A stretch of 64,000 nucleotides of DNA. Origin: Candidatus Woesebacteria bacterium GW2011_GWB1_38_8b (lineage in GTDB: Bacteria > Patescibacteriota > Microgenomatia > UBA8517). Numbering within the stretch: the stretch's first letter is position 1; the number at the start of each line of letters is the position of its first letter. Location: positions 19,924 through 83,923 of the forward strand of contig LBVN01000001.1 in NCBI GenBank assembly GCA_000993115.1. The letters run 5' to 3'. Below are positions 373 through 58,726 of the stretch, one piece after another. Made by a program: the position numbers and the translations under genes. The notes beneath the pieces were generated by a model, which was given only the letters and a program-made list of their open reading frames with translations, made no database searches and was not told the DNA's origin.

Positions 373-382
373 AATTCACCTC

Positions 383-664
383 CTATACCCCTGAATGAAT
401 ACGAGTTTTGAGCTCGTTAATACTTTCAATTAGATCTCTTGCATCAACCTGCAATTCGTGATTCCAGTATCGGCTGAGTATTAATTCTGCCTGATTATCT
501 GAGTCTTGATTATCTGAGTCTTCAAACACAAATACGAAGTGTTGTCTGTCTTGTTTTTCCAAACGTACTAGAGGAAATCCTGCGGTTTTGAGGATTACGG
601 ATTGGTAAAAATCTGATAATTTAAATTCGTTGGATTCCATAGGATTTTTCATTTTTAATTCCAT
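383..664 (-). CDS. Hypothetical protein with a DSDNQDSDNQ tandem repeat (element cargo)
   Basis: 93 aa ORF. The DNA carries the 15-nt unit gattatctgagtctt about 2.7 times near 485..530. The start is uncertain; internal Mets are at 652 and 640. Confidence 0.35.
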   Translation of the reverse strand: MELKMKNPMESNEFKLSDFYQSVILKTAGFPLVRLEKQDRQHFVFVFEDSDNQDSDNQAELILSRYWNHELQVDARDLIESINELKTRIHSGV

Positions 665-800: not shown

Positions 801-878
801 GAGGCCAGTGTATTTGAGGAGGATAGAATAGGTGAACAGTATAGGGTATTTGTTTTACTTTGGAGAAAAAAGTAGCCC

Positions 879-1592
879 CTATCTTTTTGGGAGTGGTCGA
901 ACCGATAATCTTATTCTTTTTACACCCTGACTGCCTATGTTTATTATCGCAACTTTTGCGCCTGCAAACTCTTTCTGAAACCGTTTGTTCAAGACTACAA
1001 TCATTGCATCTATTCTTCTATTGTCAGGATCTTTTGATCCATATTGCTTGAGTTGCTTGACTAAAAAGCCTGATCCTATACCACTCTCTCCTGCCTCAAC
1101 AACTAATTTCGACAATAGAGCCCTTTGATTTATTTTTGCTCCCGCAGGAAGGCTTTTCTTCGAAAACACGCATTTACCATAAGGCGAGAGATATAATGTA
1201 TTTTCCTTTTCATTAAATTGAAAATCTTTATTCCAGATTTCATCTTCATATACATCATGTTTTCCTGAGAATCTCGATTCAAGAGTTTCATTAGTCCATT
1301 TTTCAGCAAGGTCATAATCAATTTTAACCAGGAAATATCCTTTGGGAGTGTGGTTAAACATGAATTGCTGAGGTTTAGGTGTATTTGAGATTATCTTTAA
1401 TATCCCAATCTTTTCGAGATAAAAAGGTGTTTCTAACTGATTATAGGCGTATTCAACTTCTCTGAGGTCGAAAGTTCGAGGCGCCATCGACTCCATTGCA
1501 ATGTCCCTCAAGTCACCTTTGTCCTTAGTTCTTATCACAACACTACATAAGCGCAGCGCGTCATCAATAATGTTTTTATCTACATTTTCCAT
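879..1592 (-). CDS. Hypothetical protein (element cargo)
   Basis: 237 aa ORF adjacent to the recombinase unit. No motif recognised. Confidence 0.45.
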   Translation of the reverse strand: MENVDKNIIDDALRLCSVVIRTKDKGDLRDIAMESMAPRTFDLREVEYAYNQLETPFYLEKIGILKIISNTPKPQQFMFNHTPKGYFLVKIDYDLAEKWTNETLESRFSGKHDVYEDEIWNKDFQFNEKENTLYLSPYGKCVFSKKSLPAGAKINQRALLSKLVVEAGESGIGSGFLVKQLKQYGSKDPDNRRIDAMIVVLNKRFQKEFAGAKVAIINIGSQGVKRIRLSVRPLPKR

Positions 1593-1635
1593 ATTGTATA
1601 TTCTATTTAATTATACTATATTAGTTTAAGTTAAT

Positions 1636-1857
1636 ATGACTAAGAAAACAATACCATTATTTTCTCCTTCTGATCCTACCACCTGGTCTCCACTTCTAAC
1701 TCTTTTGCAAGCTTCTCAAATATTAAACGTCAGTCCTTGGACGCTTCGCCAATGGGATAATAAGAAAAAACTTTTAGCAGTAAGAATAGGTACTCGGCAA
1801 GATCGCCGATACAAAAAAGCAGATCTATTAAAAATCCTTGATAAAGGTCTGAAATAA
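1636..1857 (+). CDS. Excisionase-family helix-turn-helix DNA-binding protein (Xis/AlpA-like, candidate recombination directionality factor)
   Basis: The motif LLTLLQASQILNVSPWTLRQWDNKKKLLAVRIG...RRY matches the excisionase/MerR-like HTH pattern. Its stop is 3 nt before the recombinase ATG. Confidence 0.6.
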   Translation: MTKKTIPLFSPSDPTTWSPLLTLLQASQILNVSPWTLRQWDNKKKLLAVRIGTRQDRRYKKADLLKILDKGLK

Positions 1858-1859
1858 AC

Positions 1860-3434
1860 ATGGAAAATAAATTTAAGATTCGAGCGGTTGTATACGCTCG
1901 AGTAAGTACAAAAGAGCAAGTTGAGGGTAAGATCTCGATCCCTTCGCAAATAACTGATTGTAAGAAAGTAATTGTAGAAAGAGGCTGGGAATTGGCCAAA
2001 GAGCCATATATCGATGAAGGAATAAGCGGTCATCTCCTGGAAGAACGCAAAGGGCTTCAAGACTTGCTCAGTGATGCTAGACAGCATCTTTTCGATCTGG
2101 TAATAGTCAAAGACTTCGACCGCTTTGCTAGAAACCGCGCTGCTGCAACAATCGTGCGCGAGGAGCTAAAAGAGCTTTTCATCCAAACTTACGCCCTAAA
2201 TACTCCAGTCGAGCCGAAGAATCCTAAGACATATGATCCCACAGACGATGACTTGGGGATTATGGTCGAGGGATACAGTGATACGATGTCTGAAATTGAG
2301 AGAAACAAGATTCGCAGACGAATGATGATGGGTAAAGTAGCCGTAGCCAAGGCAGGAAAAATCCCAAATAACGTACCTTATGGTTACAAAATAAAGCGCT
2401 CGATTGATGAGAAAGGAAAAGTGCATCGTAAAGTATTGGTAGATGAAGAAAAAGCCAAAATAGTCCGTCAAATATTTGATGACTATATAAGGGGTAAGGG
2501 AGCTCTCAATATCGCCTTTCAACTTACTGAGAAGGGCGTAAAACCACCTAGGGGTCAATATTGGCGAGCACAGGCTATCAAATACATGATCCAGAACCAA
2601 ACATACACAGGTAAGGTATTGTGGGGCTGGAGACACGCTGATTATAAGAAAAACCAACAGCGAAGGTTAAGAGGCCATCAAGGAATTATTGAAGACAGCA
2701 CTGAGCACAAAGCAATTATTCCTGAGGCTATTTTTGCGCTAGCTCAAAAGGAGAAAAAGATCAGAGGTAATTCCCAAAAAGGTCGAGGAAAACTCAGTCG
2801 AGGCCTACTTACGGGACTCGCAAAATGTATTCGCTGCGGATCTGGTGTAACTTATCTCACTCGTCACCATAATAGGAAGAAAAAGAATCTGAATTGGAAT
2901 GATACAACTACTTACGAATACCTGTGCGGTGGTTACAAATACAGTGGGATCTGCCAACGCAGGATAATGAGTGCCACTAAGCTTGAAGAGTTTGTCTTAA
3001 ACCAGATCAGAAACCTGGTTAATAATCCAACAGCCAGAGAAAGATTGATCTTCGATCGCAATATTGCCATATCAGATAACCTGGAAGATGACTACAAGTA
3101 CGCTGCAAAACAACTTGCTGACATCGAAAGAAGAAGGCAAAGGGTCAAGGAGGCTTATGAGGCGGGTATCGACTCGTTAGAGGTCTATGGAGGCAATTTA
3201 AAGCGCTTAGAGGAAGAAGAGAATAAGCACCATGTGGTAGCCGATGATTATCAATTTAAGCTTCAGAAGGTTAACGAGCGTCGCCAGGAACTAGAGAAAT
3301 TCACTAAATCTCTAGAAGACTTCAATACCTTATGGGATAATGCAGAGTTTGAAGAGAGAAAACATTTCCTGCGTATGATAATTAAAGAAATACGCGCGGG
3401 TAACGGAAATATTGAGATCGATTTTCGCTTCTAA
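1860..3434 (+). CDS. Large serine recombinase (integrase)
   Basis: N-terminal resolvase catalytic domain AVVYARVSTKEQ with the active-site Ser. A large recombinase domain follows, with a Cys-rich zinc ribbon (CIRCGSG...CGGYKYSGICQRR) and a C-terminal coiled coil. 524 aa. Confidence 0.9.
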   Translation: MENKFKIRAVVYARVSTKEQVEGKISIPSQITDCKKVIVERGWELAKEPYIDEGISGHLLEERKGLQDLLSDARQHLFDLVIVKDFDRFARNRAAATIVREELKELFIQTYALNTPVEPKNPKTYDPTDDDLGIMVEGYSDTMSEIERNKIRRRMMMGKVAVAKAGKIPNNVPYGYKIKRSIDEKGKVHRKVLVDEEKAKIVRQIFDDYIRGKGALNIAFQLTEKGVKPPRGQYWRAQAIKYMIQNQTYTGKVLWGWRHADYKKNQQRRLRGHQGIIEDSTEHKAIIPEAIFALAQKEKKIRGNSQKGRGKLSRGLLTGLAKCIRCGSGVTYLTRHHNRKKKNLNWNDTTTYEYLCGGYKYSGICQRRIMSATKLEEFVLNQIRNLVNNPTARERLIFDRNIAISDNLEDDYKYAAKQLADIERRRQRVKEAYEAGIDSLEVYGGNLKRLEEEENKHHVVADDYQFKLQKVNERRQELEKFTKSLEDFNTLWDNAEFEERKHFLRMIIKEIRAGNGNIEIDFRF

Positions 3435-6257
3435 TCAGCCTCTTTTCCCGTATCTTCTTTGCCATTCTTCCTGATTATTGGAATATAAGTTATAGGCTTC
3501 AATCTCCTGTGTTCCTTGCGGTTCCCTATTTATATGGCACTTCTTCCACTTCTTTCCGCTACCACACCAACATGGGTCGTTGCGGCCTAGTTTTTTGGTA
3601 GCCGGTTGTGAACTTTCACTAGTGTTTTGTGATGGAGTCGCGAAAGCTTTTTTGCCGGCGGCAGCCGTAATTTCTTCATCCGCGGATTCCATAAGACCGG
3701 TTTGATCAAGTTGATCCTCGTTTGTACGAAGTAAATTTGTCGGAATTTCTGGCCGCTGCGAAGCAACTCCAACTCTGAATAAGCTTCTCGCAAGCTGTGC
3801 CTCAATTTTTCCCATCAATCCCTCAAACATTTGGAATGCCTCATTTTTAAATTCCGCCAATGAATCTCGCTGTCCATAAACACGAAGCCTAACTCCCTCG
3901 CGTAATCCTTCAATCCCATCCAAATGCTCTACCCACTGGTGATCAATTGAGCTTATGTAGGCAAACTTTTCGACCTGTCTCATAACATTCTCCCCTACCT
4001 GCGATTCGCGTGATTTATGTACGCTAAGTACAATTTTTTCCAGAGTTTCTTTTATTTTTTCCAAATTATCCTGATTTTTTAGCTCCTTTAAAGCCTGTTC
4101 GCGTGAGGCATCATCAAACGGAACTATTTCTACCAAACCCATAACAATCTTTTCGTGATCAATTTTTCCCTCTATATTTTTTCCGAATTCGACAATTAAA
4201 TCAATCTCTTTATGAAGTATCTCCAAAACTTCATCTTTTACAACTTCTGCCTCCAACACTTTCTTACGTAGTTTATAAATAACTTCCCTTTGCTGATTTG
4301 CAACGTCGTCGTATTCAACAACATTTTTTCTGGAATCAAAATGAAATCCTTCAACTTTAATTTGCGCTTGTTCAATTGCTCGGCTTATAAGGCGGTTCTC
4401 AATTGGTTGATCTTCGGGAACTTTAAGACGGTTCATCAAAGCAATCATCTGCTCCCCTCCAAAGATTCTCATCAAATCGTCCTCCAACGATAAATAAAAT
4501 CTCGACTCACCCTGATCCCCTTGCCTTCCACCTCGTCCACGAAGCTGATTATCAATTCGTCTAGACTCATGACGCTCGGTTCCGATTATATAAAGTCCTC
4601 CCGCTTTTTTAACTTTTTCGTGGGCAATTTCCCATGCTGTATATTCTTTTGACTTTTTATAAGTTTCTTCTTTTGATCCTTCTGTCCTGTCAGGTTTTGC
4701 ACCTCCCAAAACAACGTCGACACCACGCCCTGCCATATTTGTTGCAACAGTTATTGCACCAGGTTTTCCAGCACCCGCGATAACAAGAGCCTCAGTTTCG
4801 TGGTTCTTTGCATTTAAAACATTGTGTGGAATTTTTTTGCGTTTCAACAAGTCAGACAAAACTTCATTTTTCTCAATCGAAGTAGTTCCAACCAGTACCG
4901 GCTGCCCTTTTTTATATTTATCCTCAATGTCACGGGTAATTGCGGCGTATTTTGCAGAAATAGATTTGTAGACAACATCGGCCATGTCATGCCTGACCAT
5001 CGGCATGTTTGTAGGAAGTACAACAACGTCAAGCTTATAGATTTTTTTAAACTCCTCGGCTTCGGTTGCTGCGGTTCCTGTCATACCGGACAGGTGTTCG
5101 TACATACGAAAATAATTTTGGAAGGAAATTGTTGCATAAGTTTTTGTTTCCTGCTGAATTTTTACACTCTCTTTTGCCTCAACTGCCTGGTGCATTCCGT
5201 CTCCCCAACGCCTTCCATACATAAGTCTTCCCGTAAATTCATCAACAATAATGACCTGGTCCTCTTTTACAATATAATCGCGGTCAGGTAAATAAAGCGT
5301 TCGGGCTCTGAGTGCGTTTTCGATATGGTGTATTGAATCAAAATCTTTTTCGTAAAGATTATCCACCCCGAGAATTTTTTCGACTCGGGTAATTCCGTGC
5401 TCCGTCAGAGTTGCGCTTCGCAATTTTTCGTCAATCGAATAGTCAGTATCGGGATTTAGTTTTTCAATGAGAGTGGCAAACTTATAATATTTATCGGTCG
5501 GTTCGGTGTCGGGAGCCGAAATAATAAGCGGAGTCCGTGCTTCATCAATTAAAACCGAATCAACTTCATCAACAATGGCAAAGTAGTGCCCGCGTTGTAC
5601 CATTTCGGGCAAGCTCTGGACCATATTGTCACGCAAATAATCAAAACCAAACTCATTATTTGTTCCATAAGTAATATCCGCCGCATAAACTTCACGCCTT
5701 TGCGCAGGTTTAAGGTGAGCAAGGCGTTCATCGCCATGGCTTGTATCGTTATAATCATGATCATAAATAAACGACTTCCCTTCCTGAACAATTGAACCAA
5801 TTGTGAGGCCCAAAAGGTGAAATATCGGAGCATTCCATCCGGCATCACGCCGCGCCAGATAATCATTTACAGTTACCAAATGAGAGCCTTTACCTGTCAA
5901 TGCACGAAGATAAAGAGCGGGAACTGCGGATAAAGTTTTTCCCTCACCTGTTTTTTGCTCAGCAACTTTGCCTTCAAAAAGTGCAACGGCTGCCATAAGC
6001 TGAACATCATAAAGCCGCAGTCCCAATGTTCTTATTCCTGCTTCGCGTACAAGTGCAAAAGCTTCGGGAAGAATATCTTCCAATTTTGTTCCATCAGAAA
6101 CTTTTTTCTTAAACTCTTCGGTTTTTTTCTTAAAATCATCTGCTTTGAGTTTTTTTATTTTTTCCTCAAGCGCATTTATTTGCTCGACGGTTTTTTGAAG
6201 CCTTTGAACCTCTTTCTGGTTTACATCCAGAATTTTCGTAAAAATATTTTTAAACAT
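3435..6257 (-). CDS. secA: Preprotein translocase ATPase SecA
   Basis: Full-length SecA (940 aa) with DEAD-like motor domains (KTGEGKTL, DEVDSVLIDEA) and the C-terminal zinc finger CWCGSGKKWKKCH. An unusual extra ~30 aa tail follows the zinc finger. Confidence 0.95.
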   Translation of the reverse strand: MFKNIFTKILDVNQKEVQRLQKTVEQINALEEKIKKLKADDFKKKTEEFKKKVSDGTKLEDILPEAFALVREAGIRTLGLRLYDVQLMAAVALFEGKVAEQKTGEGKTLSAVPALYLRALTGKGSHLVTVNDYLARRDAGWNAPIFHLLGLTIGSIVQEGKSFIYDHDYNDTSHGDERLAHLKPAQRREVYAADITYGTNNEFGFDYLRDNMVQSLPEMVQRGHYFAIVDEVDSVLIDEARTPLIISAPDTEPTDKYYKFATLIEKLNPDTDYSIDEKLRSATLTEHGITRVEKILGVDNLYEKDFDSIHHIENALRARTLYLPDRDYIVKEDQVIIVDEFTGRLMYGRRWGDGMHQAVEAKESVKIQQETKTYATISFQNYFRMYEHLSGMTGTAATEAEEFKKIYKLDVVVLPTNMPMVRHDMADVVYKSISAKYAAITRDIEDKYKKGQPVLVGTTSIEKNEVLSDLLKRKKIPHNVLNAKNHETEALVIAGAGKPGAITVATNMAGRGVDVVLGGAKPDRTEGSKEETYKKSKEYTAWEIAHEKVKKAGGLYIIGTERHESRRIDNQLRGRGGRQGDQGESRFYLSLEDDLMRIFGGEQMIALMNRLKVPEDQPIENRLISRAIEQAQIKVEGFHFDSRKNVVEYDDVANQQREVIYKLRKKVLEAEVVKDEVLEILHKEIDLIVEFGKNIEGKIDHEKIVMGLVEIVPFDDASREQALKELKNQDNLEKIKETLEKIVLSVHKSRESQVGENVMRQVEKFAYISSIDHQWVEHLDGIEGLREGVRLRVYGQRDSLAEFKNEAFQMFEGLMGKIEAQLARSLFRVGVASQRPEIPTNLLRTNEDQLDQTGLMESADEEITAAAGKKAFATPSQNTSESSQPATKKLGRNDPCWCGSGKKWKKCHINREPQGTQEIEAYNLYSNNQEEWQRRYGKRG

Positions 6258-25062: not shown

Positions 25063-27666
25063 TCATATATAATTGGTTAACCAAATAACATAGTCTGCAC
25101 CGTCAACTCTCCCATTATTATTAAAATCACCATTACTTGCCCCCCCAACGTTTTGGTTGTAGTGGTTTAACCAAATAACATAGTCTGCACCGTCAACCTT
25201 TCCATCCCCGTTTGCGTCTCCGGGAAACACCGTCTGTGTGGGTGTGATTGTTTGAGTGGTAGTTGGGGTCGTAATGGAAATTGTGTGATTACCTTCTGCC
25301 ACCCTTATTCTTACAAAACCATTACCAGACGTAAGAACTGTTGGACTCAAATTATCTATCAATAATCCCATAATTCCCGGATAGTATATAGTAATATCAT
25401 TCTCACTCCCCGAATAAAATTTCCCATTAGTGCCTTTTAAGTGGATGCTTAAATCCTGAGTGGATTCAAAACCTATTCTTTCTGAGCCGTAAGAAAACGA
25501 CCTTCCTTTCCTGACGAAATAAAAATTAAGCGACTGGTTATTTTTTCTGAAAATTGCTGCGGGTCCTTGAAAACTTGCTCCCTGATAAGTTATGAGGTTG
25601 TTTCCTTTTGATTCCAGAAGGAAATCATTGACTCCGCCTCCATGGATCAACTCTGCTCCACTATAATTATTACCCTGAAGTCTGTTCATTTGGGGTTTAA
25701 GATGGTTTGCATCTGTTGGAAAAAGGACAGTCACAATATTTTTCTTATTGTCCGAATCCAACTGATATGTTGAAAAGAGATATTTACCAATTATTGATTT
25801 TCTCTCGTCGTAATTATCCCAATGACATAAAACTCCATTTAAAATATCCACCTGTTGCGGTTGCGTTCCAAGAAATAACGAAATTCCTGCCATAGAATTA
25901 TTAAACACGTTTGTTCCAAGCGGTGCCAAATATTCAGCTTTATCAGTTACAACAGAAGTGGTTTCTGAATTCGGGTGCAATACAATATTGGTAACTCCCG
26001 ACGAGGTTGCAGTTACTTCATCAAATAATGCAAAATAACCGTTTTTTGAGTCCTGTGGATGAATAAAGACAAAATTTCTGATATGAGTACCATTTGGTAA
26101 TGCGGATCCAGAATTTCCTGAAGCATAATCAAAAAGACCACCAGTAATTCCCTCAATAATCCCCAAACCGGATTTTCCCTGATGATCATTTACGTTACTA
26201 GGGTCGAGAGGGTTTCCTATTTGATAATTTATTAACGCAGTATTATTTGATACGGCTCTATGGCTTAGGTAATTAGGAGTATAACGCTGATTTTGTGGTA
26301 GGTAGTCCGGACAACTATCCGCTCCGGCGTTTGTGCTCGCACCACCAAATCCCCCATTCACCAACAATGGCTCTCCATAACCAGCAATATAAACTGAATT
26401 AATATCGTCATGCATATGAAACTCGGGGCTGTTCGGATTTGGGATGTTAACATTCCAAAGCACTCCATACAAACTACCATCAACAGAGTTAGATTCAAGA
26501 AAAAAGGATCCTCCGTTAGGGAAAATCCTGCTTTCCGGTTTTTGGGCAACAGAATTATCTCTTAACAAAACATAATTAATTAATCTACCCTTAAAACCCA
26601 AGTCTAAATCAGGTCGTAATCTACTAGCCGTTTGCCATTTCCAGTATGCATATTGTCCTGCGAGATTCGAATATTGATTAGCCCCCGCGATATGCGCACT
26701 CTCTATTAGCCTTGATCCATTGCCAAAAGACCATAGCGGATAATAGTCCGAAGTATCACCAAAAGATGCTTCAACAGCGAATGGTGTACTGGCATATCCA
26801 TACAACCACTCATGCAGATTTTTAAATCTTGAATTGTTATAATATCTGTTATCGACACCCGTAAATTCCAATACATCTGGAAGCATTGTTCTCTCGTCTC
26901 GATTGTGTCCCCAGGCTACATATCCATACCCAGGACCTTCGTAGTAGACTCCATCCGGACTAATACGTGCGACCAACTCTGGCATAAATCCTGTAATCGG
27001 GCGACTATCTCCCGGACGTCTGCCTCCATTTAATAAAACCCGGATATATGGATCGTCTCCCTTTTTACCAAGATATAAGCTCCAAATAATTTGCGTACTT
27101 TCCCAAAGCGGGGGTTTATCTGAAAACGCGTTATAGTAATGATTGTATTCTTGGGTTAGCCAGTACTCACTGTCCAACAAATCCTGACTGTTAAGAGAAT
27201 CATGTATTACATCCAAAGCTAAAATACTATGAAAGAACGCAGTGGCAGGATAAACATATGCGTCTTGAGAATAGACAATATTTCCATCTGGAGGGTGTTG
27301 GAAATTTAATATATCACTCCATTTTGGATAACTTTCCACCAGTTTTTGTTTATAAACTTCTTGATTATTTTGATCCAAAATAAAAGCCAAACTACAAGAA
27401 CTCATAATATCTCGCATGGTAAAGCTTTTTTTACTTCCAATAGGAGGATTGGAAAGATCGTAAACAGTATTTTGACAAGTAGCTACGGCGTCATCCTTCA
27501 TCTCTCTCCAAGGGGACTGTAAAGTTCGGTTTCTCAAAGATGCAAAATCACTCGCTTTAACAATTAAAAATGGGTGCTGAGTCTGTGCAAAAGCTTTCTG
27601 AGGGATTTTAACCAAAAAAATTGACGTTAAAATAATTGACAATAATAACTTACATGTCATCTTCAC
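25063..27666 (-). CDS. Secreted polysaccharide-lyase-like protein (alginate-lyase/heparinase II-III-like N-terminal alpha-toroid plus beta-sandwich) with a C-terminal dockerin
   Basis: Signal peptide ...AFAQT. The N-terminus HPFLIVKASDFASLRNR resembles the start of heparinase II/III-like lyases. Dockerin FPGDANGDGKVDGADYVIWLNHYNQN...NGDFNNNGRVDGADYVIWLTNY. Confidence 0.4.
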   Translation of the reverse strand: MKMTCKLLLSIILTSIFLVKIPQKAFAQTQHPFLIVKASDFASLRNRTLQSPWREMKDDAVATCQNTVYDLSNPPIGSKKSFTMRDIMSSCSLAFILDQNNQEVYKQKLVESYPKWSDILNFQHPPDGNIVYSQDAYVYPATAFFHSILALDVIHDSLNSQDLLDSEYWLTQEYNHYYNAFSDKPPLWESTQIIWSLYLGKKGDDPYIRVLLNGGRRPGDSRPITGFMPELVARISPDGVYYEGPGYGYVAWGHNRDERTMLPDVLEFTGVDNRYYNNSRFKNLHEWLYGYASTPFAVEASFGDTSDYYPLWSFGNGSRLIESAHIAGANQYSNLAGQYAYWKWQTASRLRPDLDLGFKGRLINYVLLRDNSVAQKPESRIFPNGGSFFLESNSVDGSLYGVLWNVNIPNPNSPEFHMHDDINSVYIAGYGEPLLVNGGFGGASTNAGADSCPDYLPQNQRYTPNYLSHRAVSNNTALINYQIGNPLDPSNVNDHQGKSGLGIIEGITGGLFDYASGNSGSALPNGTHIRNFVFIHPQDSKNGYFALFDEVTATSSGVTNIVLHPNSETTSVVTDKAEYLAPLGTNVFNNSMAGISLFLGTQPQQVDILNGVLCHWDNYDERKSIIGKYLFSTYQLDSDNKKNIVTVLFPTDANHLKPQMNRLQGNNYSGAELIHGGGVNDFLLESKGNNLITYQGASFQGPAAIFRKNNQSLNFYFVRKGRSFSYGSERIGFESTQDLSIHLKGTNGKFYSGSENDITIYYPGIMGLLIDNLSPTVLTSGNGFVRIRVAEGNHTISITTPTTTQTITPTQTVFPGDANGDGKVDGADYVIWLNHYNQNVGGASNGDFNNNGRVDGADYVIWLTNYI

Positions 27667-36694: not shown

Positions 36695-39362
36695 AATTAT
36701 TCAACCAAATCACATAGTCAGCCCCATCAACATTTCCTGAATTATTAAAGTCACCATTTGCAGGACCGGTGACATTTAGATTGTAGTGATTTAGCCAAAT
36801 TACATAATCAGCTCCATCAACTCGTCCGTCGTTATTCGCATCTCCTAGGATTGGCGTTGGTGAGATTGTAGGAGTAATACTTATCGATTGATTATAATTC
36901 CCGATTTTTACTCCAACATCTGTTGTTACCGAAGCCAAATTATTTAGATTTATTATCAGTTCACCTTGATTGTTCGTTGGAATTTGTGAACTTGTTTTAG
37001 CTAAATTCGCACCATTGTCGAATTGCCAATATTCTACTGGCAGGGTTTCGTTTACAGAAAAACCTGAAATTGTAACACTCCCTGTTAATCTACCTAAATC
37101 CCAAGTCTGGGAACATCCGGATATTCCACCCACTACTGCGCACCATGTGTGTTTTTTATTTTGAATCCAAAGGTGCGCCAATTTCTTTTGTATATTTTTC
37201 TGACCAATAACCCGAATCGAATTATTATCATATCCCAAGGCTCCTATATCTGTATAACCTCCCTGATTTAAAGGAATATTTACTAAAAAGTCGGAAAGGG
37301 GTTTAAATCTATCCCGATGGTCAAACGTCAAAGGACAAGGAACAACTCCCCCGGGACAGTCATAAATATGAAAATTTTCAAACCAATAAGATTCAATTAA
37401 TCCGCCAGAATTAAGTCCCGCCCAAAGAAAATTATGAAGCCAAACCCCATTAGTATCCTTTCTTATATCTGAATCCTGAACCAGGTTGTTATCAACCACA
37501 AAACCGGTTTCCCCCCTTACTGTCGGCCAGCGTGTGTTTGATTGCGTACCCCACTGCGAACTGGCATCAATAGTAGCTTGTGCCTCGTCATAAAAATCAG
37601 TCAATGGCACACAAGGATTTCCGGATCTTCTTATGTAGCAGTGAACATCAGCAAAATCAATACCGGGATAATTATTTAAATTCCAAGAGGATGTAGTCCC
37701 TGTCCAAACTGAAGTTGACACCATTTGATGCGGGGAAAATTGACCCATATATTCCCCCATCATATTAACCGAAATTCTGTGGCCAGAATAACCCGGATCA
37801 CCCTCGTTCACATATTCCCAGGAATGTATATTTGTCGAATATCCCCAACGGGCCTCCAGATATCTCCACCAAGCTTTTTGTAACCACCTTGTTTTGGTAA
37901 TGGAGGTGTCTGAGGGTCCATAAAAATAATAAGATACGGGGTTAAAATCACCTGTTGGATTCCCGCTATGGTCAATGTGTGTAAATGTCCACTCTCTGTG
38001 GTCTCCAATTACGGGACGAAGGTAAACACTGTTCTGTTTAGCCAACTCAACAACCTGATCAAAAGAAAAAGAATTTCGCTGGTCAAAATATCTATGGTGA
38101 TCCATTTTAGGTTTTTGTAAAATATTTGCACCAACCGCAATATTGTTCTGTAATTCCTTTATTTCAACCTCGGAAACTCTGACACTTCCTGAAGTTATAT
38201 TCTCGAGTTGTAAAAAAAGATGGTCTATGAAATCCTGATTTCCGGTCGTAAAAGTTCCCGTCAACCATTGCCAGGAAGCGTTTGCTCCCTGCCTTACATA
38301 AGGTGTAATTGCAGTTGCCGAATTACATCCCTGCCAAGTACCCAGTTTGGCTACAAATCCCCCCTCCCCAACAATATTATCAGGATAATAAAAAATTCTA
38401 ATTTGGTAAGTAGTGTTTGGTTTTACAGCAATTGGAGCGTTTTGGTATGGGTCATGAAAAACACAAGGGTACACTGTTCCTACTTTTAACGCCAGTTCAT
38501 GATCGCTTTCCAAATACTGATTAACGTTCGAGGTTAGAAGTTCCATCGGAGGATCGCCCCCTGTATTTCCAAATGCTTTCCATGGATTCCAACCTGCACC
38601 AAATATTGACCACTGAGACAGCCAAACGCGAATCAGTTGAACACCATTTTGTCCCATACTTTGAAAATTGGATTGATTTTGTGAAATCGGATTTACCCAG
38701 TTTACGTGGTTATAGTTCATGTTATATCCAAGACCGGCAAAATATGACCCATTATCAAATTCAAAATAGCGCTTATCACTTTGGGCAACTCTAATAAATC
38801 CCTTACTGCCTGATGCGACAACACTAAAGCCACTGATGTTTGAAGTTGAACTGCCTGATGCGTCTCGCACTTTTATTCTGTATTGCCAGTTTCCGACTTG
38901 GTTTGGTGCGTAACGAACTTTCCAGGAAAAATTTCCGTTTGGATATATCCAGTCTCTAGTCCCGTTGTTTTTGCTTAACATTGAAAAATCCTGATAATAA
39001 AAAGCTGGTTGCGTATAAGCATTGTTCCAGTCTGTTTCGCCTGGAGGAAGAAGCTCCGCGTCTACTGAAATTCCTAAATCGGCTTCTTTAAGGCCTGATG
39101 GCACAGGAGGTTCATAAGGAAGCTGTAAATTTTGTGCAACAGTATTTGCAACCTGAAAAGAAATTTCCAGCTTTTCGTATTTTGGAATTTGAGAACCCTG
39201 ATACGATGACCTATTATCGGAAATACTATTTATCGTAGGTCCCTGCTGGGCAAAAATATTTCTTGGATACACCAAAAAAAATCCCAAACATAGAAATAGT
39301 GATGTTAGAATTAATAGTCTTCGCATACTACTTATCAGTATATCAGCCAACTGGACTCTCAA
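36684..39362 (-). CDS. Secreted DUF5060/GH5-like (cellulase-superfamily TIM barrel) protein with a dockerin
   Basis: N-terminal Ig-like region, then a TIM-barrel-like core (KRYFEFDNGSYFAGLGYNMNY...RVWLSQW). Dockerin LGDANNDGRVDGADYVIWLNHYNLN...NGDFNNSGNVDGADYVIWLNNY. Confidence 0.4.
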   Translation of the reverse strand: MRVQLADILISSMRRLLILTSLFLCLGFFLVYPRNIFAQQGPTINSISDNRSSYQGSQIPKYEKLEISFQVANTVAQNLQLPYEPPVPSGLKEADLGISVDAELLPPGETDWNNAYTQPAFYYQDFSMLSKNNGTRDWIYPNGNFSWKVRYAPNQVGNWQYRIKVRDASGSSTSNISGFSVVASGSKGFIRVAQSDKRYFEFDNGSYFAGLGYNMNYNHVNWVNPISQNQSNFQSMGQNGVQLIRVWLSQWSIFGAGWNPWKAFGNTGGDPPMELLTSNVNQYLESDHELALKVGTVYPCVFHDPYQNAPIAVKPNTTYQIRIFYYPDNIVGEGGFVAKLGTWQGCNSATAITPYVRQGANASWQWLTGTFTTGNQDFIDHLFLQLENITSGSVRVSEVEIKELQNNIAVGANILQKPKMDHHRYFDQRNSFSFDQVVELAKQNSVYLRPVIGDHREWTFTHIDHSGNPTGDFNPVSYYFYGPSDTSITKTRWLQKAWWRYLEARWGYSTNIHSWEYVNEGDPGYSGHRISVNMMGEYMGQFSPHQMVSTSVWTGTTSSWNLNNYPGIDFADVHCYIRRSGNPCVPLTDFYDEAQATIDASSQWGTQSNTRWPTVRGETGFVVDNNLVQDSDIRKDTNGVWLHNFLWAGLNSGGLIESYWFENFHIYDCPGGVVPCPLTFDHRDRFKPLSDFLVNIPLNQGGYTDIGALGYDNNSIRVIGQKNIQKKLAHLWIQNKKHTWCAVVGGISGCSQTWDLGRLTGSVTISGFSVNETLPVEYWQFDNGANLAKTSSQIPTNNQGELIINLNNLASVTTDVGVKIGNYNQSISITPTISPTPILGDANNDGRVDGADYVIWLNHYNLNVTGPANGDFNNSGNVDGADYVIWLNNYGV

Positions 39363-40289: not shown

Positions 40290-41829
40290 CTTCCCTGAAG
40301 AAATTATTGACTAAAATCCAAAAGTCGTAAGAATTTACAATTCCGTCTTTGTTGTAATCAGATGGTCCTGTCAAAAACCAATTCTGATACATTATTGCGA
40401 CATCGATATTATTAACAATTCCGTCATCGTTTAGATCCCCTGCAACTAAATTTCCGAAATTCAAAACGTTTGTCCCCTCAAGAAGAGTCTGCGAAATTCT
40501 TCTCCTCAAAAATCCCGATGATTTAAGCCTAAAGAAAAGTTCAGAATTTAAATAGGTATAATCAAGTTGCCAAGTTTGTGAATTTCCGTCATTATCAGTT
40601 GTAAAATTTTGCAGCCAAGTGTCATCGACTATTTCCACCGACCCTGATGCAACGTGTCCAATTGCAAGATTTTCGGAAGGAGTCTTTAGGTTTAAATAAG
40701 CAAATACATCTAATCCCAAAATATCCAAAATTGCACCGTTTGTAGTTTGTAAGATATCCTCTCCGTTTGTTGCAATTACGTTACTTTCAGATTTATCACC
40801 GAGAGTAAAATTAAAATTAAGCTCGGTTAGTCCGATTATTTTTGGTTTAACTGTTATACTCGCAACAATACCTCCTGAATTTATACTTTGTTGAGGAGTT
40901 TGGGTTGCCGAAATTCTTAAAATTCCGGGGGAACTGTTATTAAAAATAAAATTTCCACTAAAAAGACCGCTACTTGAAACGTTTATAATATCAACAGCCA
41001 GCGGATCGTAATTAATAACCGCGTCAACTCCAATTATCGGTGAAGATATTAATAAACTCAGGTCAACTTGGGATTCTTTCGTTATTTTAAATTCCCCGTT
41101 CGGAAAAAGCGATAAAGTTGCAGGCTGATTTGCTATCGGAGTAGGAGTTGGGGTAACTGTCGCCGTGGGTGTTGGTGTTGGTGTCTCAGTTTGAGTTGGT
41201 GTAACCGTGGGTGTAAAAGTCGGTGTATTTGTTGGAGTAAGTGTTGGGGTAGGAGAATCAGTTGGTGTTAACGTTGCAGTCGGAGTTTGGGTCGGGGCGT
41301 CAAATGAAATGTCAAAGTTCTGACTCCCAACAGTTAATTGTTGGGCAGCCATGTTAACAACACTAAAATTTTGAGTATTGAAAGTCAAAGAAGTACCACC
41401 TGAAGGTGTTCCTGTTTTATTAAATTCCAAAGTTGCCAATTCAAACTCTCCGCTTGGAGGATTGGCAACGTCTGCCGGCGACAATCCCAATACTATTGTT
41501 ACTACCCCATTTGCATTTGCATCGGCGACATTTGTAACAATTATTTGGTTTTTTAAAGGTCCTGTTGCCGCAACCGGTGCTGATAAACTCAGCTTAGTTT
41601 TGTCAAATGAAATTTCCACCGAAACAAATCCAATTAACTCGGAACCTGAATTAAGCATAATTTTGTAAGACCCACTTGTTAAAGTTGATAAATCATTTGG
41701 ACCTGTAATAAAAAGATTCGCTTGCGGTGTTTGCGCAGAAGTATTGATAATTTTTGTAAGAATTACAATTAAGCCAACAAAAACCAGCGCATAAAATTTC
41801 TTACCATGTAAATTCTTCAAAAAATTCAT
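40282..41829 (-). CDS. Scaffoldin-like protein: signal peptide, two cohesin-like domains separated by a TP linker, an X-like beta module and a divergent C-terminal dockerin
   Basis: Cohesin-like 1 (YKIMLNSGSELIGFVSVEISFDKTKLSL...VVTIVLGL). PT linker PTQTPTATLTPTDSPTPT... Cohesin-like 2 (ITKESQVDLSLLISSPIIGVDAVINYDPLAVDII...). Dockerin GDLNDDGIVNNIDVAIMYQNWF...DYNKDGIVNSYDFWILVNNFF. Confidence 0.6.
   Translation of the reverse strand: MNFLKNLHGKKFYALVFVGLIVILTKIINTSAQTPQANLFITGPNDLSTLTSGSYKIMLNSGSELIGFVSVEISFDKTKLSLSAPVAATGPLKNQIIVTNVADANANGVVTIVLGLSPADVANPPSGEFELATLEFNKTGTPSGGTSLTFNTQNFSVVNMAAQQLTVGSQNFDISFDAPTQTPTATLTPTDSPTPTLTPTNTPTFTPTVTPTQTETPTPTPTATVTPTPTPIANQPATLSLFPNGEFKITKESQVDLSLLISSPIIGVDAVINYDPLAVDIINVSSSGLFSGNFIFNNSSPGILRISATQTPQQSINSGGIVASITVKPKIIGLTELNFNFTLGDKSESNVIATNGEDILQTTNGAILDILGLDVFAYLNLKTPSENLAIGHVASGSVEIVDDTWLQNFTTDNDGNSQTWQLDYTYLNSELFFRLKSSGFLRRRISQTLLEGTNVLNFGNLVAGDLNDDGIVNNIDVAIMYQNWFLTGPSDYNKDGIVNSYDFWILVNNFFREDE
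41150..41300. repeat. Low-complexity tandem repeat DNA encoding a Thr/Pro linker
   Basis: ggagttggggtaactgtcgccgtgggtgttggtgttggtgtctc... The antisense ORF 41378..41668 is an artefact. Confidence 0.7.
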
Positions 41830-44982: not shown

Positions 44983-45381
44983 GTGAAAACTAAAAATAAT
45001 ACATTGGAATCTAGTATCCAAAAAATAAATGATTTCAATAAAGCCCGTGGTTGGAATCCCTTACCCTCCGATCTGGCAAAATCTATTGTTCTTGAAGCAG
45101 CAGAACTTCTCGAACATTTCCAATGGGATGACACAAATTCCAAATCAAAAAACGAAATTTTAAAAAATAAAAATTGGGAAGAGATCGGCGAGGAGGTTGC
45201 TGACGTATTTTGGTATTTAGTTAATTTTTGTAATAAGTCGGGTATCGATTTAAATAATGCAGTTTTGGATAAGCTTGAAAAAAACGAGATAAAATATCCG
45301 GCTAAAATGTTTAATGGCAAACACAACGAAAAATTCTATCGGGAACAAAAAAGAAAATATCGCGAGAAAAAGAAAAAATAA
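44983..45381 (+). CDS. MazG-like nucleotide pyrophosphohydrolase domain protein
   Basis: KARGWNPLPSDLAKSIVLEAAELLEHFQW...EIGEEVADVFWYLVNFCNKSGIDL matches the MazG/YpjD family. Confidence 0.7.
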   Translation: MKTKNNTLESSIQKINDFNKARGWNPLPSDLAKSIVLEAAELLEHFQWDDTNSKSKNEILKNKNWEEIGEEVADVFWYLVNFCNKSGIDLNNAVLDKLEKNEIKYPAKMFNGKHNEKFYREQKRKYREKKKK

Positions 45382-45561: not shown

Positions 45562-45978
45562 ATGGCTGATTCAATTGAAAATAAATTGGGTGAATTAAAA
45601 GAAGTAGCTGAGAAAATGTTTGGTGTTATTCCAACAGGCACTTACGTAGAAAGACGAGGATGCGGATTGAATCCAAAAGACTGTGGATTTCGAGGTCATT
45701 TGGTTGGAACCAGAAATCGGGGAGTATTCCCTACTTGCATATCTCATCTAAAAAACGGAAGCAACCGTGAAATCGTGACATTAATTGATTTAAATGGGTA
45801 CGTAGTAACAAGACAGCAGGATATAGTTTTTTGTAGTGTGAAAAACGGCGAGGAAGCAAAAAATGAAGACTCTGATCCCCTCTTACGAAAGTTTAGAAAA
45901 TATTTACCAAAACTGACTTCTGACTTCCAAGGTCTAACTTCCTACTTCAATTTTCTCTTTCCTTATTCATTTTCTTAA
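45562..45978 (+). CDS. Hypothetical protein
   Basis: 138 aa ORF with a possible leaderless promoter upstream. No motif recognised. Confidence 0.4.
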   Translation: MADSIENKLGELKEVAEKMFGVIPTGTYVERRGCGLNPKDCGFRGHLVGTRNRGVFPTCISHLKNGSNREIVTLIDLNGYVVTRQQDIVFCSVKNGEEAKNEDSDPLLRKFRKYLPKLTSDFQGLTSYFNFLFPYSFS

Positions 45979-46232
45979 TAACCATCACAATTAGGACTGG
46001 TAACCATGCTTATCAGCTGCACCCTTGTACCACTACCTAAACTAACCCTTTTTCCTCGACAATTTTTCACCAAAATTCGATTATTGGTTGATTGTTTTGT
46101 TCCTTCGGGATAATCCACAACTCGTCCATAAAACTCCTTATGGGGATGTGTACCACCTTTTGAACGAGAGTGAACAACAACTTCATCGCCAGGATACAAT
46201 TCGCTCGCTTCAATTAAATTTACTTTTGCCAT
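45975..46232 (-). CDS. Hypothetical small protein (possibly a DUF2945/Tudor-like fold)
   Basis: 85 aa. PGDEVVVHSRSKGG...GRVVDY...RVSLGSG resembles small SH3/Tudor-like proteins. Weak. Confidence 0.3.
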   Translation of the reverse strand: MAKVNLIEASELYPGDEVVVHSRSKGGTHPHKEFYGRVVDYPEGTKQSTNNRILVKNCRGKRVSLGSGTRVQLISMVTSPNCDGY

Positions 46233-46250
46233 TAAAACTTCACCTCTTCT

Positions 46251-47425
46251 CTACAAACTATCTTGCTTTCTGACCTCAATCTTCTCTTTTCCAATCCATT
46301 TTCTCAAAACTTCGGGTACGGTTACTGAACCATCTTCGTTTTGATAATTTTCCAAAATTGCAATAACAATTCTGCCGATCGCAAAGGCGGTGGCATCGTT
46401 CATATACACAAACTCAGTTTTATCTCCCTTTCTAACCTTAGTATTCAATCTTCGTGATTGGTAATCTGTCATGTAATCAGAAGTATGAGTTTCTCTATAT
46501 TTGTCTTGCCCGGGCAACCATGTTTCAATATCCATTTGTCGGTAATCCGGCCCACCCATATCCCCGGTACAAATTTCCACAACTTGATAGGGAAGCCTTT
46601 TGTATCTTTCCCGTAAGAGCCCGCTTCCCTTCTGAATGCCGTTGAAAAACCAATATATCGAATTGGTAAATCTTTTTCTAAAAGAGTTTCGTCCATGTGC
46701 AGTGGTCCTAATGTATGTTCAGCGCTTCCGATTAAATAGACGTCATCTGAGGGAATATAGTATCGTTCTTCTTTTGGATAAAGCCTACCCATCCGATCGA
46801 ACACCTCAGGTTTAATCATTACAGGCGGAACGACAGGAATAAAAGGTTTAGGGTTATATCCTTCCTCAACCTTATTTGCAATTTCCCTCAGGGTGCTTTC
46901 ATTTGTTAATGTTTCAAATACAAGTTGGACAATCGCGTATTCTATTAACACAGCCTCCCCCATTAGATATCCAAATCTCGTTCCGGTAATTTTTCCAGCT
47001 TTCTCAATATTTATTAGACCCAATTTTTCTCCAATTCCTACATGATCAAATGGTTTGAAATTAAATTTGGTCGGTTCACCCCATTTTCGAATTACTTTAT
47101 TTTCGGTATCATCCTTCCCAATTTTTACATCATCAGCTGCAGGATTTGGTAATTTTTTCAGAATTTCAAAATACTCAGAGTCGATTTTTTCCAATTCCGG
47201 TTCCAACTTTTGCAGCTCAACCTTTAATCTTTTACCCGATTCAATGTCCTTATTTTTTGCCGCAGTGTTTCTGTCGGCTCTCAATTTTTCAACCTGACTT
47301 AAAAGCTCACGTTTCTTCCCATCCAATTCCAATACTTTATCAACTAAAGCAGGATCATAATTTTTATCAGTGACGCCTTTTTTTATTTTGTCCGGATTAT
47401 CACGGATAATTTGTATATCTAACAT
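46251..47425 (-). pseudogene. serS: Seryl-tRNA synthetase gene disrupted by a ~120-nt internal deletion plus a frameshift (ORFs 46469..47425 and 46251..46580)
   Basis: The N-terminal ORF has the SerRS coiled-coil arm and motif FRREAGSYGKDTKG. The C-terminal ORF has CTGDMG...DIETWLPGQDKYRE...AIGRIVIAILENYQNEDGSVTVPEVL. The ~40 aa between them that should carry R(V/M)HQFDKVE are absent, and the two halves are in different frames. Confidence 0.6.
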
Positions 47426-47503
47426 ATTTGTATTTTAACTCCTTTTGTTTCTAAATTCTTTATTAATTTGAGGCTACATTCTTTCAAGAGAAACTGAAGG
47501 TTC

Positions 47504-48085
47504 TCAAAGCCCTAAATACCCACTTATCCCCTGCATAGCGGTGAGTGCAATTTCTATAAATTCGGAAAGAGGAATTCCAAGTCTTTCACTGCAAAGCTCA
47601 ATTTGTCTCCTATCAACACCTGCGCAAAAACTGGGGGAATTCCATTTTTTCATAACGGAATCGACAGTAACTGAAGCCAGTTTTTTATCGGGTTTAACAA
47701 GTGCTGTTGCAACTATCAATCCTGTCAATTCATCACAGGTATAAAGCGCCCACTGCATTGGTGTAACCGGCTCAGGTGCATTTTCCAAATATCCCCAGGC
47801 ATGAGAGGCAATTGCGCTTGTAACATCTGAGTGAACATCAAACAGTCGGAGCCACTCCAGAATTTTTTTTGTGTGATCGGTTTTTGCTGTTTCTTTTGTA
47901 ACTTCATAATCCGCATCATGCAAAAGTCCTGCAATTTTCCACCTCTCGCGTTCTTCATCTTTATTCTCGACATTAAGTCGGTCGTAAAGTGCCCCCATTA
48001 CTGCCTCAACCGCATAGCAGTGCTTGCGCAGGTTTTGATTCCGCATATTCTCATGCAGTAATTTTATTGCTTGTTCTCTTGTCAT
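47504..48085 (-). CDS. HD-domain phosphohydrolase
   Basis: H...HD motif (KHCYAV...AGLLHDADYE) and distal His residues. Confidence 0.7.
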   Translation of the reverse strand: MTREQAIKLLHENMRNQNLRKHCYAVEAVMGALYDRLNVENKDEERERWKIAGLLHDADYEVTKETAKTDHTKKILEWLRLFDVHSDVTSAIASHAWGYLENAPEPVTPMQWALYTCDELTGLIVATALVKPDKKLASVTVDSVMKKWNSPSFCAGVDRRQIELCSERLGIPLSEFIEIALTAMQGISGYLGL

Positions 48086-48387: not shown

Positions 48388-48404
48388 CTTTCAATGAAAA
48401 TACT

Positions 48405-49880
48405 TTATTCTTTGTTTCCAGGCTTTAAAGTCGGAAACAAAATTACCTCTTTAATCATCCAAGTATTTGTAAAAAACATAGTCAATCTGTCAATCCCAAT
48501 TCCAATTCCCCCAATTGGCGGCATTCCGTATTCCATTGCCTCAATAAAATCCTCATCAACCTGCTGTGCTTCTTCTTTATCCTTGCGAGCCGCTTTGACA
48601 TCGTCTTCAAATCTTTCTCTTTGGTCAATTGGGTCGGTTAATTCGCTCCATCCATCGCAAATTTCCTTTCCCCCAATATAACCCTCAAATCGCTCTACCC
48701 AATCACCCACCTCATCTTTAAGTTTGGAAAGAGGAGATACATCGCGTGGGTAATCGATTATCCAAGTAGGTTCCATCAAAGTTTTTGAAATTAGTTTATC
48801 AAAAATCAAAAATATAAGCTGACCTTTAGTTTCACCACCAACCAAATCTAATCTTTTATCTTTGCAATAACTATTCAATTCATCTAATGACATCGAATTA
48901 ACATCTATCTCCAGATTATCTTTTACAATATCGACCATCGAAATTCTCGGCCAACTCTTTCCAATGTCAATCTCATTTTCATCAACCTTGATTTTCATTT
49001 CTCCAAAAAGTTTTTGAGCTAGGTGTTTAAATAACCCCTCAGTTACATCCATTACGTTTTGGTAGTCAGTATATGCGGCATAGTATTCAATCATTGTAAA
49101 TTCCGGGCTGTGCACCTGGTCAATTCCCTCATTTCTGAAATCTTTACATATCTCATAGACTTTTTCATAACCGGCAACTATTAGCCTTTTAAGGTAAAGT
49201 TCGTCAGCAATTCTTAGATAAAATTCCGAATCGAGAGCATTATGGTAAGTTTTAAAGGGTTTGGCGTTTGCCCCACCATAAAGCGGTTGTAACGTTGGTG
49301 TTTCTACTTCGCTATACCCCAAATCGTCTAAATACCTCCTGATTTCTCGAACAAGTTTTACCCTTGTATCAAATCTTATTTTGACATCAGGATTAAACAT
49401 AAGATCTAAGTAACGCTTACGATAACGTTCTTCTACATCTTTTAATCCATGCCAAGTTGACGGAAGCGGACGGATTGACTTTGAAAGAAGTTGATAATCG
49501 ATTACATCTACAGTTGTCTCTCCCGCTTGGGTTTTGAAAACTTTACCTTTTGCGTACAAAAAATCACCCACATCCAGAAGTTTTAACGTTTTGAAATTGT
49601 CTTCAAGAGTTTTTTTCTGGAACAAAAGCTGAATTTTTCCGGATTCGTCTTTCAAATCGGCAAAAATTATATTTCCATGTTCACGATAGGACATTAAGCG
49701 TCCTGCAACCTCGACAAAGTCGTCCCGCGAAGCTTCAGCGAAGTGGGACTCTCTAATATTAACTATTGGTACGGTGGTTCCTTTAGTTTTTGAAGGATAT
49801 GGGTTAATGCCCAAATCATGAAGCTTTTGAACTTTTTCCAATCTTATTTTTTTAATTTGTTCCAGTGTCTGCTCAGCCAT
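48405..49880 (-). CDS. lysS: Lysyl-tRNA synthetase (class II)
   Basis: N-terminal OB anticodon-binding domain and class II core motifs (FRNEG, GIGIDRL). Confidence 0.9.
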   Translation of the reverse strand: MAEQTLEQIKKIRLEKVQKLHDLGINPYPSKTKGTTVPIVNIRESHFAEASRDDFVEVAGRLMSYREHGNIIFADLKDESGKIQLLFQKKTLEDNFKTLKLLDVGDFLYAKGKVFKTQAGETTVDVIDYQLLSKSIRPLPSTWHGLKDVEERYRKRYLDLMFNPDVKIRFDTRVKLVREIRRYLDDLGYSEVETPTLQPLYGGANAKPFKTYHNALDSEFYLRIADELYLKRLIVAGYEKVYEICKDFRNEGIDQVHSPEFTMIEYYAAYTDYQNVMDVTEGLFKHLAQKLFGEMKIKVDENEIDIGKSWPRISMVDIVKDNLEIDVNSMSLDELNSYCKDKRLDLVGGETKGQLIFLIFDKLISKTLMEPTWIIDYPRDVSPLSKLKDEVGDWVERFEGYIGGKEICDGWSELTDPIDQRERFEDDVKAARKDKEEAQQVDEDFIEAMEYGMPPIGGIGIGIDRLTMFFTNTWMIKEVILFPTLKPGNKE

Positions 49881-50027
49881 ACCTAGTGCAAGTTTATCAA
49901 AGAAGCATAGAGTAGTAAAATTTCCCTATAAATATAAGTCGAATATTTTTTAATAGGGAAATCTTTGGCTCTAAATTCAATCAATTCTCGCAATAATATT
50001 GCGCGCGTTTCTTGAAATTATAGTAAA

Positions 50028-50492
50028 TTATTCAATCGACAATATTTCGTAAGATATTTTTCCAGCTGGAGCGTCCACCTCAACTTTATCGCCAATCTTT
50101 TTTCCAAAAAGTGCCTGACCAAGGGGAGATGTATGGGAAATCTTTTTCTTCATAGGATCAGCTTCCCAATCACCAACAATCTCATATACCAATTGGTTAC
50201 CATTGAACTTAAGTGTCACATGCGTACCGAGGGCGATGCCTCCATTTTTTGCTCCCTGTTTAACCACGGTTGCGTATTTCAAAACATCTTCTAACTCCGA
50301 TATTCTGCCGTCTAAAAATTCAAGTTCGTCCTTGGCATTATGGTAATCGCTGTTTTCCGACAAGTCTCCCTGCAGCCTTGCGTTGGAAAGTCTGTCAACA
50401 ACTTTTGGTCTTTTGTTTTCAACTAAATCGTTAAGCTCTAACTTAAGAGCATCCAGACCTTTTTGTGTAATTTGTAATTGATTATTTTTCAT
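50028..50492 (-). CDS. greA: Transcription elongation factor GreA
   Basis: Typical GreA coiled-coil N-terminus (ITQKGLDALKLELNDL...RLQGDLSENSDYHNAKDELEFLDGRISELE) and FKBP-like C-terminal domain. Confidence 0.9.
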   Translation of the reverse strand: MKNNQLQITQKGLDALKLELNDLVENKRPKVVDRLSNARLQGDLSENSDYHNAKDELEFLDGRISELEDVLKYATVVKQGAKNGGIALGTHVTLKFNGNQLVYEIVGDWEADPMKKKISHTSPLGQALFGKKIGDKVEVDAPAGKISYEILSIE

Positions 50493-55264: not shown

Positions 55265-55320
55265 ACATATTTAGCCTCAGTTTTGTACTAGAATTGGTAA
55301 ATTTCGAAAACAGTCTCTAG

Positions 55321-55392
55321 TGACCCCACCGGGATTCGAACCCGAATTACTAGGATGAGAACCTAGCGTCCTAGCCATTAGACGATGGGGCC
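55321..55392 (-). tRNA. tRNA-Glu (anticodon CTC)
   Basis: The minus strand GGCCCCATCGTCTAATGGCTAGGACGCTAGGTTCTCATCCTAGTAATTCGGGTTCGAATCCCGGTGGGGTCA folds as a cloverleaf. Acceptor stem 7 bp, T-loop GGTTCGAATCC, anticodon loop TTCTCAT. No encoded CCA. Confidence 0.8.
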
Positions 55393-57991: not shown

Positions 57992-58470
57992 AGAGCCTTA
58001 AATAAATGCAGCTTTTGAATTGTGTGTGCAACCGCGATCCCAATAAGGCTACCAACTATCACATCGGAAATCGAATGAACGTTACTGAAAATTCTTCCCG
58101 CTGATATTAAGATAGCGCAGGCTATAAAAAATAATCCGGCTTTTTTGTTATGCAAATATACGCTTACCGCCAAAGCAAACGAAATTGCAGCGTGGTTTGA
58201 TGGAAATGAACCATCGCCGGGAATTGTTAATGTAAGTGGTGGTCTTCCGTCAAACTGAAATGGACGAAGTGTCGGAAAAAGCGTTTTTATTAGATAAACA
58301 ATTGAACCGGCAATTATAATTGAAAATATTGCGTGAAGTGCTTGTTCTTTTTTTATTTTACCGTCAATAAACCATAATATCCCAACACCAATAAACATCA
58401 GCCAAATTAATAAACTTGCAACAAAAGTTACGAAAAAAGAATTTTGTGCTGATAGGACTTCTGGATTCAT
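57985..58470 (-). CDS. PAP2-family phosphatase (undecaprenyl-diphosphate / phosphatidylglycerophosphate phosphatase-like)
   Basis: Acid phosphatase motifs (KTLFPTLRP, PSNHAA, SRIFSNVHSISDV) within a 4-6 TM protein. Confidence 0.7.
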   Translation of the reverse strand: MNPEVLSAQNSFFVTFVASLLIWLMFIGVGILWFIDGKIKKEQALHAIFSIIIAGSIVYLIKTLFPTLRPFQFDGRPPLTLTIPGDGSFPSNHAAISFALAVSVYLHNKKAGLFFIACAILISAGRIFSNVHSISDVIVGSLIGIAVAHTIQKLHLFKALR

Positions 58471-58726
58471 GATTTGTTAATTACAATTTTTGCTCAGAAA
58501 TTATTTGTATCAGGATAAAAACTCTTACCCTTTCTCGTCTTTACATATATAGATTATATAGCCAACTCAAAATAAAATAACAGTTTTTCATATAAATGAG
58601 GCTATATATCAATGTTTACAAGTGGTTTCAAAACCTACTTGTACAGACATCTAGAACAGCCTGTAAAACAAAATAAAATCAAACATTTTGTTTTAAACTT
58701 GCTATAGCAGTGATAATATACATACA

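Follow-up and report, generated by a model that had tools for sequence, protein, structure and literature searches.

A 121-bp gap that splits the seryl-tRNA synthetase gene of a draft Woesebacteria genome is probably an assembly error

The draft genome of Candidatus Woesebacteria bacterium GW2011_GWB1_38_8b, a metagenome-assembled CPR genome of the Rifle aquifer “GW2011” series, carries serS, the gene for seryl-tRNA synthetase (SerRS), as two out-of-frame pieces on the minus strand (positions 46251..47425 of the 64,000-nucleotide stretch analysed here, hereafter the window). This raises the question of whether the gene is broken in the organism or in its record. A first-pass annotation of the window had described an internal deletion of about 120 nt with the two halves of the gene in different frames, and both statements are borne out. 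Alignment to ten contigs from other assemblies, with flanks that are 100% identical, puts the deletion at exactly 121 bp. When the intact protein of a sibling genome is searched against the window with tblastn, its residues 1–278 align in frame -1 (47425..46592) and its residues 318–431 in frame -3 (46595..46254), so that no uninterrupted serS reading frame is present. Since 121 is three times 40 plus one, i.e. 40 codons and one nucleotide, the loss shifts the 3′ part of the gene by one base. The same search detected no second serS-like sequence in the 64-kb window.

The 5′ portion (46596..47425, minus strand) runs through codons 1–276 to the second base of the Gly277 codon. In protein terms it covers the N-terminal coiled-coil arm and the beginning of the class II core, with motif 2 kept as far as its first half (…FRREAGSYGKDTKG). 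An RBS-like AAGGAG hexamer lies 13 nt upstream of its ATG (47439..47444, minus strand) and, as read from the sequence, indicates that the expression signals of serS are intact. The third base of the Gly277 codon is the first to be missing and that of the Asn317 codon the last, which places both breakpoints at third codon positions. The junction lies at 46595..46596, where the 121 bp of the comparators (5831..5951 of contig L001) are absent, with 0 bp of microhomology on both sides. Beyond it the 5′ reading frame continues into an out-of-frame tail (46469..46595, minus strand; FPIKLWKFVPGIWVGRITDKWILKHGCPGKTNIEKLILLIT, then a stop), which is a by-product of the +1 shift and no real peptide domain. 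The 3′ portion (46251..46595, minus strand) holds codons 318–431 and the stop, from LPYQVVEICTGDMGG through the motif 3 region to the terminal QDSL, and is 100% identical to the sibling protein over these residues.

The assignment of the two open reading frames, 46469..47425 and 46251..46580, to SerRS was confirmed with TIGR00414, Pfam and tblastn. The first (minus strand) matches positions 1–276 of the 418 positions of the TIGR00414 serS profile with 178.9 bits, and the frame containing 46251..46610 (minus strand) matches positions 315–418 with 131.3 bits. This alignment, which the first-pass annotation had proposed as a way of sizing the gap, leaves 38 profile positions missing between the two pieces. 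The cut-off of this NCBIfam equivalog profile is 301.65 bits for a whole protein over positions 1–418; the two window pieces, scored separately, fall below it, while the intact sibling protein (P0001) scores 366.3 bits over the full profile. The N-terminal tRNA-binding arm (PF02403) is present with 66.6 bits at residues 1–94 of the 5′ product, and the class II core (PF00587, tRNA-synt_2b) is matched at positions 9–55 and 96–179, with positions 56–95 missing.

What has been lost is residues 278–317 of the 431-residue enzyme, which in P0001 read ILRVHQFDKLEMESFTTSENGQKEQYFIVAIQEYLMQKLN. Class II motif 2 was sought as FRxE, a loop and xxRxHQFxKxE, and is incomplete in the window: FRREAGSYGKDTKG is kept, while ILRVHQFDKLE, i.e. 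the second strand of the motif, is absent together with the next 29 residues. The earlier statement that the deletion removes motif 2 is therefore right for its second strand and wrong for its first half. Similarly, the gap had been described as about 40 residues reaching as far as LPYR; 40 residues are indeed gone, but LPYQ is present right after the junction, where LPYQ…CTGDMG is the first sequence encoded in the 3′ frame, upstream of the GTG taken as the start of the 3′ open reading frame. The lost columns are conserved in all five aligned homologues and in the SerRS structure PDB 2dq3. The motif 2 strand of class II synthetases that is missing here contributes to the binding of ATP and the amino acid, and an allele with the 121-bp deletion would, by analogy with these enzymes, be null.

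The conservation of the missing residues bears directly on whether the two pieces could be expressed jointly, by programmed frameshifting, or work as a split enzyme. Each part is still an open reading frame, and the ribosome-binding site of the 5′ part is retained, which speaks for such an arrangement. Rejoining the frames nevertheless leaves out the 40 residues conserved in all homologues, including ILRVHQFDKLE, and the protein rejoined in silico barely reaches the cut-off (303.7 against 301.65 bits), and does so as two separate stretches. The 121 bp are, moreover, simply present in sibling contigs. The homologue alignment effectively refutes both arrangements, to which we attach next to no probability.

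The lesion is present in the deposited record. The 318-residue product, including the tail FPIKLWKF…LILLIT, is KKQ87813.1 (“Serine-tRNA ligase”, GW2011_GWB1_38_8b) on an 85,371-bp contig, and the 73-residue C-terminal fragment is KKQ87812.1 of the same genome; the gap therefore belongs to the deposit and did not arise when the window was extracted. Outside this deposit, an intact serS was read in eleven contigs, which come from further assemblies of this Rifle-aquifer population. The DNA comparison used window positions 46100..47600 as the reverse complement and each contig over the part that it covers. Ten of the contigs (L001–L010, from NCBI, JGI and ENA) are 100% identical to the window apart from the 121-bp gap (1,501 nt compared). 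The eleventh (L041, 648–1943) also has the 121 bp; in a 66-bp patch it differs by five substitutions, of which one creates a nonsense codon. This patch is an unrelated lesion and illustrates the noise in assemblies of this low-coverage population.

P0001, the intact product and the closest database protein (KKQ26463.1/KKQ46360.1; from Woesebacteria GW2011_GWA1_37_8 and Microgenomates GW2011_GWC1_37_12b), is recorded for 21 contigs. The genes around it are the same as in the window, and in these genomes comprise greA, lysS, an HD-domain gene, serS, an 85-aa ORF, a 138-aa ORF, a MazG-like gene and an MgsA-like AAA gene. Its residues 1–277 and 318–431 are identical to those of the window, which, unlike P0001, has no 121 bp for residues 278–317 and has its downstream part frameshifted. 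In the protein cluster of the window product, where all six members were inspected, the deletion occurs only in KKQ87813.1, and no other carrier of the junction and tail peptide was found among 5.8 billion cluster representatives. The lesion is thus private to one assembly, with identical flanks elsewhere, and was not seen in independent samples or assemblies.

These comparisons also bear on the possibility that serS is a true pseudogene, with its function supplied by a second copy elsewhere or from a host or partner cell. In favour of such a loss, genomes are reduced in CPR bacteria, many of which are regarded as episymbionts. Against it, near-identical siblings keep an intact gene at the same locus, scoring 366 bits against the cut-off of 301.65, and the window holds no further copy. 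The remnants show no difference from the intact allele in 1,175 nt and hence no decay, and flanks that are 100% identical leave no time for a lineage-specific replacement. We know of no case in bacteria of imported aminoacyl-tRNA synthetase activity. A true pseudogene is accordingly highly improbable, and the second copy or host dependence that the first-pass annotation had called for is neither needed nor supported, given the intact gene at the same locus in sibling assemblies. Where that annotation had left open a choice between pseudogene and assembly artefact, it is the second that the evidence favours: the lesion is private, the siblings are intact and, as described below, blunt deletions recur among them.

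Over the whole window, the sequence is collinear with 38–42 comparator loci across 62.4 of 64 kb, with block identities of 98.1–100%, most of them at least 99.5%, except for a divergent lysS stretch in L003 (window ~48400–49334), which has 250 differences in ~930 nt. Within this comparison the serS deletion is the sole structural difference that is private to the window. At a smaller scale, a single-base difference at 10426 and a dinucleotide difference at 27435–27436 set the window apart from all covering loci (8 and 10, respectively), and are either private variants or base errors of the deposit.

Several other features of the window were recorded in the course of this comparison. A region of ~30 kb (9072–41829) is occupied by large minus-strand genes, the sibling products of which have Pfam matches to dockerin, cohesin, CBM_4_9, Golvesin_C, GHL10, beta-helix and PQQ/beta-propeller families; judged by these matches, the secreted proteins of this CPR (Woesebacteria) genome include a cellulosome-like set. 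At 61–3434, adjoining secA (3435..6257), lies a gene for a large serine recombinase (1860..3434, 524 aa; Resolvase/Recombinase/Zn_ribbon_recom according to the sibling annotation). Its neighbours are an excisionase-like gene (HTH_17) and a number of small ORFs of unknown function, and this region is probably an integrated mobile element or a prophage remnant. In a sibling locus (L029, 1–5820), a second recombinase and DNA methylases follow immediately after the point at which the window ends on the right. The window contains a single tRNA gene, a tRNA-Glu (CTC; 55320–55392, minus strand).

The junction itself is informative about how the gap came about. It has no microhomology and no flanking repeat; a search near the breakpoints returned only weak, imperfect direct and inverted repeats, none of them located at a breakpoint, and, as a single-stranded DNA fold, the intact region does not exceed its shuffled versions in stability (z = 0.39). 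Repeat-mediated collapse and slippage are rejected on these grounds, and the word “collapse”, by which the artefact had first been described, does not apply, as no repeat flanks the deletion. A contrasting case is found at 508–522, inside a small ORF (383..664, minus strand), where the window has a perfect 15-bp tandem duplication (GATTATCTGAGTCTT twice) that L021 and L026 lack. No other indel of the window is clearly biological; this one is a length polymorphism of the slippage type, and it contrasts with the blunt serS deletion. A strain “bubble” bounded by synonymous SNPs was also considered; it would fit breakpoints at third codon positions, but an alternative allele of the 121-bp segment was found in no contig.

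Blunt deletions of the same kind are found in sibling GW2011 deposits. One deposit (L006, GCA_000990505.1) has lost 97 bp corresponding to window positions 45695–45791, with 0 bp of microhomology, and 78 bp across the lysS start (49832–49909), with 1 bp. Another (GCA_000992155.1) lacks 48 bp in L003 (41258–41305, 0 bp) and 13 bp in L032 (54152–54164, 1 bp). In the sibling with the start deletion, the lysS product is consequently annotated with 469 aa rather than 491 aa; the 138-aa ORF is truncated by one of the sibling deletions. These four deletions probably belong to the same class of artefact as the one in serS, a class which thus recurs within one pipeline. The 43 kb of sibling GW2011 sequence contain four private blunt deletions and the 64-kb window one more, against two (22 bp in L039 and 10 bp in L016) in ~444 kb from other assemblies (MEGAHIT, JGI, Logan and others). 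Five of the seven events therefore fall in ~19% of the sequence (binomial p ~0.004, a rough figure, as the loci overlap one another).

The 48-bp deletion of L003 matches, to within one base, the position of a dense strain-variable patch in L007. Many such patches, 25–140 bp long and with 8–20 differences, mostly at every third base, are found between assemblies that are otherwise near-identical: at 47618–47678 (in the HD-domain gene, 47504..48085), 41257–41305, 45132–45179, 47963–48050, 50184–50217, 39269–39353 and 58375–58512. They could stem from mosaic strain variation, from short recombination tracts or from strain switching by the assembler.

Two further assemblies show anomalies at the right serS breakpoint. 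In L040 (ENA, SAMN03202996), an independent scaffolded re-assembly, a run of 10 Ns (L040 2955–2964) stands exactly at GAAT|CTTCCC, i.e. at the right breakpoint of the window, and the true gap is 0 bases, with no base lost. Gaps of 10 Ns in this assembly series correspond to true gaps of 0–32 bases and mark places where contigs nearly abut. The right breakpoint is thus a contig boundary in an independent assembly; for the left breakpoint no such boundary was found. In L039 (JGI 3300025030, Ga0209518_1000700, 3001–4274), a different serS deletion of 22 bp, with 3 bp of microhomology (TAT) and the junction GAATATCT|TATCAAG, overlaps the right breakpoint and causes the same +1 shift. Both L039 and L040 differ from the window in the 47618–47678 patch when private variants are compared. 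The anomalies of the window, L039 and L040 lie within 10 bp of each other, and chance does not account for this. Of the three main samples, exactly one is affected in every one of the three series of assemblies (NCBI, ENA-ANAN16 and JGI), a pattern that would fit one sample with a local coverage hole, or a few aberrant reads.

This coincidence is a reason to consider that the 121-bp deletion could be a real and very recent allele segregating in the population, where it would be null and would mark dying or non-viable cells, extracellular DNA or rescued cells. The L039 deletion produces the same frame shift at the same spot, the contig break of L040 could come from a branch that the deletion allele introduces into the assembly graph, and the dense variant patches show that the population is heterogeneous. 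Several observations speak against a segregating allele. It is confined to one deposit, against 11 complete contigs and an intact product on 21, and its frameshifted tail recurs in no other cluster representative. Its blunt junction is unlike those of slippage deletions and of the 15-bp polymorphism, and the remnants have no substitutions. Equivalent blunt deletions hit other genes, such as the start of lysS, in siblings from the same pipeline. Finally, one would not expect a viable population to have a null version of the only serS at the locus as its consensus. On balance we consider a segregating allele unlikely. Less likely still, and clearly improbable, is that GAAT|CTTCCC is a real hotspot of DNA breakage, e.g. 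for a site-specific nuclease followed by imprecise end joining. Such a hotspot would yield independent +1-shift deletion alleles (121 bp and 22 bp) anchored at one position, and a dead copy of this essential gene would be present in a measurable fraction of cells or of free DNA.

The reading that we prefer, and regard as likely, is that the 121-bp gap is an assembly or scaffolding error in the GW2011_GWB1_38_8b draft, namely that two contigs were wrongly joined where coverage was low or strains varied. In its favour are the private nature of the lesion, the blunt junction, the recurrence of such deletions in sibling deposits and a breakpoint that falls on the contig boundary of another assembly. 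The reads may have given no continuous path at this spot, owing to low coverage, strain heterogeneity or both. Two contigs, one ending in …GATACAAAAGG and the next starting with CTTCCCTATCAAG…, would then have been placed end to end, with neither the 121 bases that belong between them nor Ns; the pipeline step at which this happened is one that we infer. The suffix “38_8b” presumably follows ggKbase usage and denotes ~38% GC and ~8× coverage, and coverage as thin as this makes coverage holes likely. Some points count against an assembly error. A de Bruijn contig junction normally needs read support, and the L039 junction hints at real heterogeneity at this spot in serS. In principle, the curation applied to the Rifle genomes (PMC5079060) should also have flagged an unsupported join.

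If the join is indeed wrong, the organism itself most likely carries an ordinary, intact SerRS of 431 aa. Biologically, the gene is almost certainly an ordinary serS that gives the organism a normal enzyme. The value of the observation lies in annotation and quality control: GenBank holds two “Serine-tRNA ligase” fragments (KKQ87813.1 and KKQ87812.1) for this genome, and fragments of this kind would wrongly lower completeness estimates, or suggest the loss of an essential gene in a CPR bacterium. In low-coverage GW2011 deposits of this population, private blunt deletions occur about once per 10–20 kb. Since they are this common, gene-loss claims that come from a single deposit should be checked against sibling assemblies or reads.

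Genuine deletion pseudogenes of reduced or degrading genomes resemble the window in having an internal deletion with a frameshift and two separately annotated ORF remnants. They are, however, shared by relatives and accumulate changes, whereas the lesion of the window is private and its remnants are 100% identical to the functional allele. Another likeness is offered by the IDBA-UD assembled, ggKbase-curated Rifle genomes described by Anantharaman et al. (2016) with reference to Brown et al. (2015), for which “two contigs erroneously scaffolded” are given as a class of error, and for which stretches beyond correction were exchanged for Ns or the scaffold was broken (PMC5079060). Unlike what that procedure prescribes, the join in the window carries no Ns, and it presumably escaped the procedure or was mis-repaired. 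Like the scaffolding errors described there, it would be a short region in which contigs were joined wrongly, in a GW2011 deposit of the same project.
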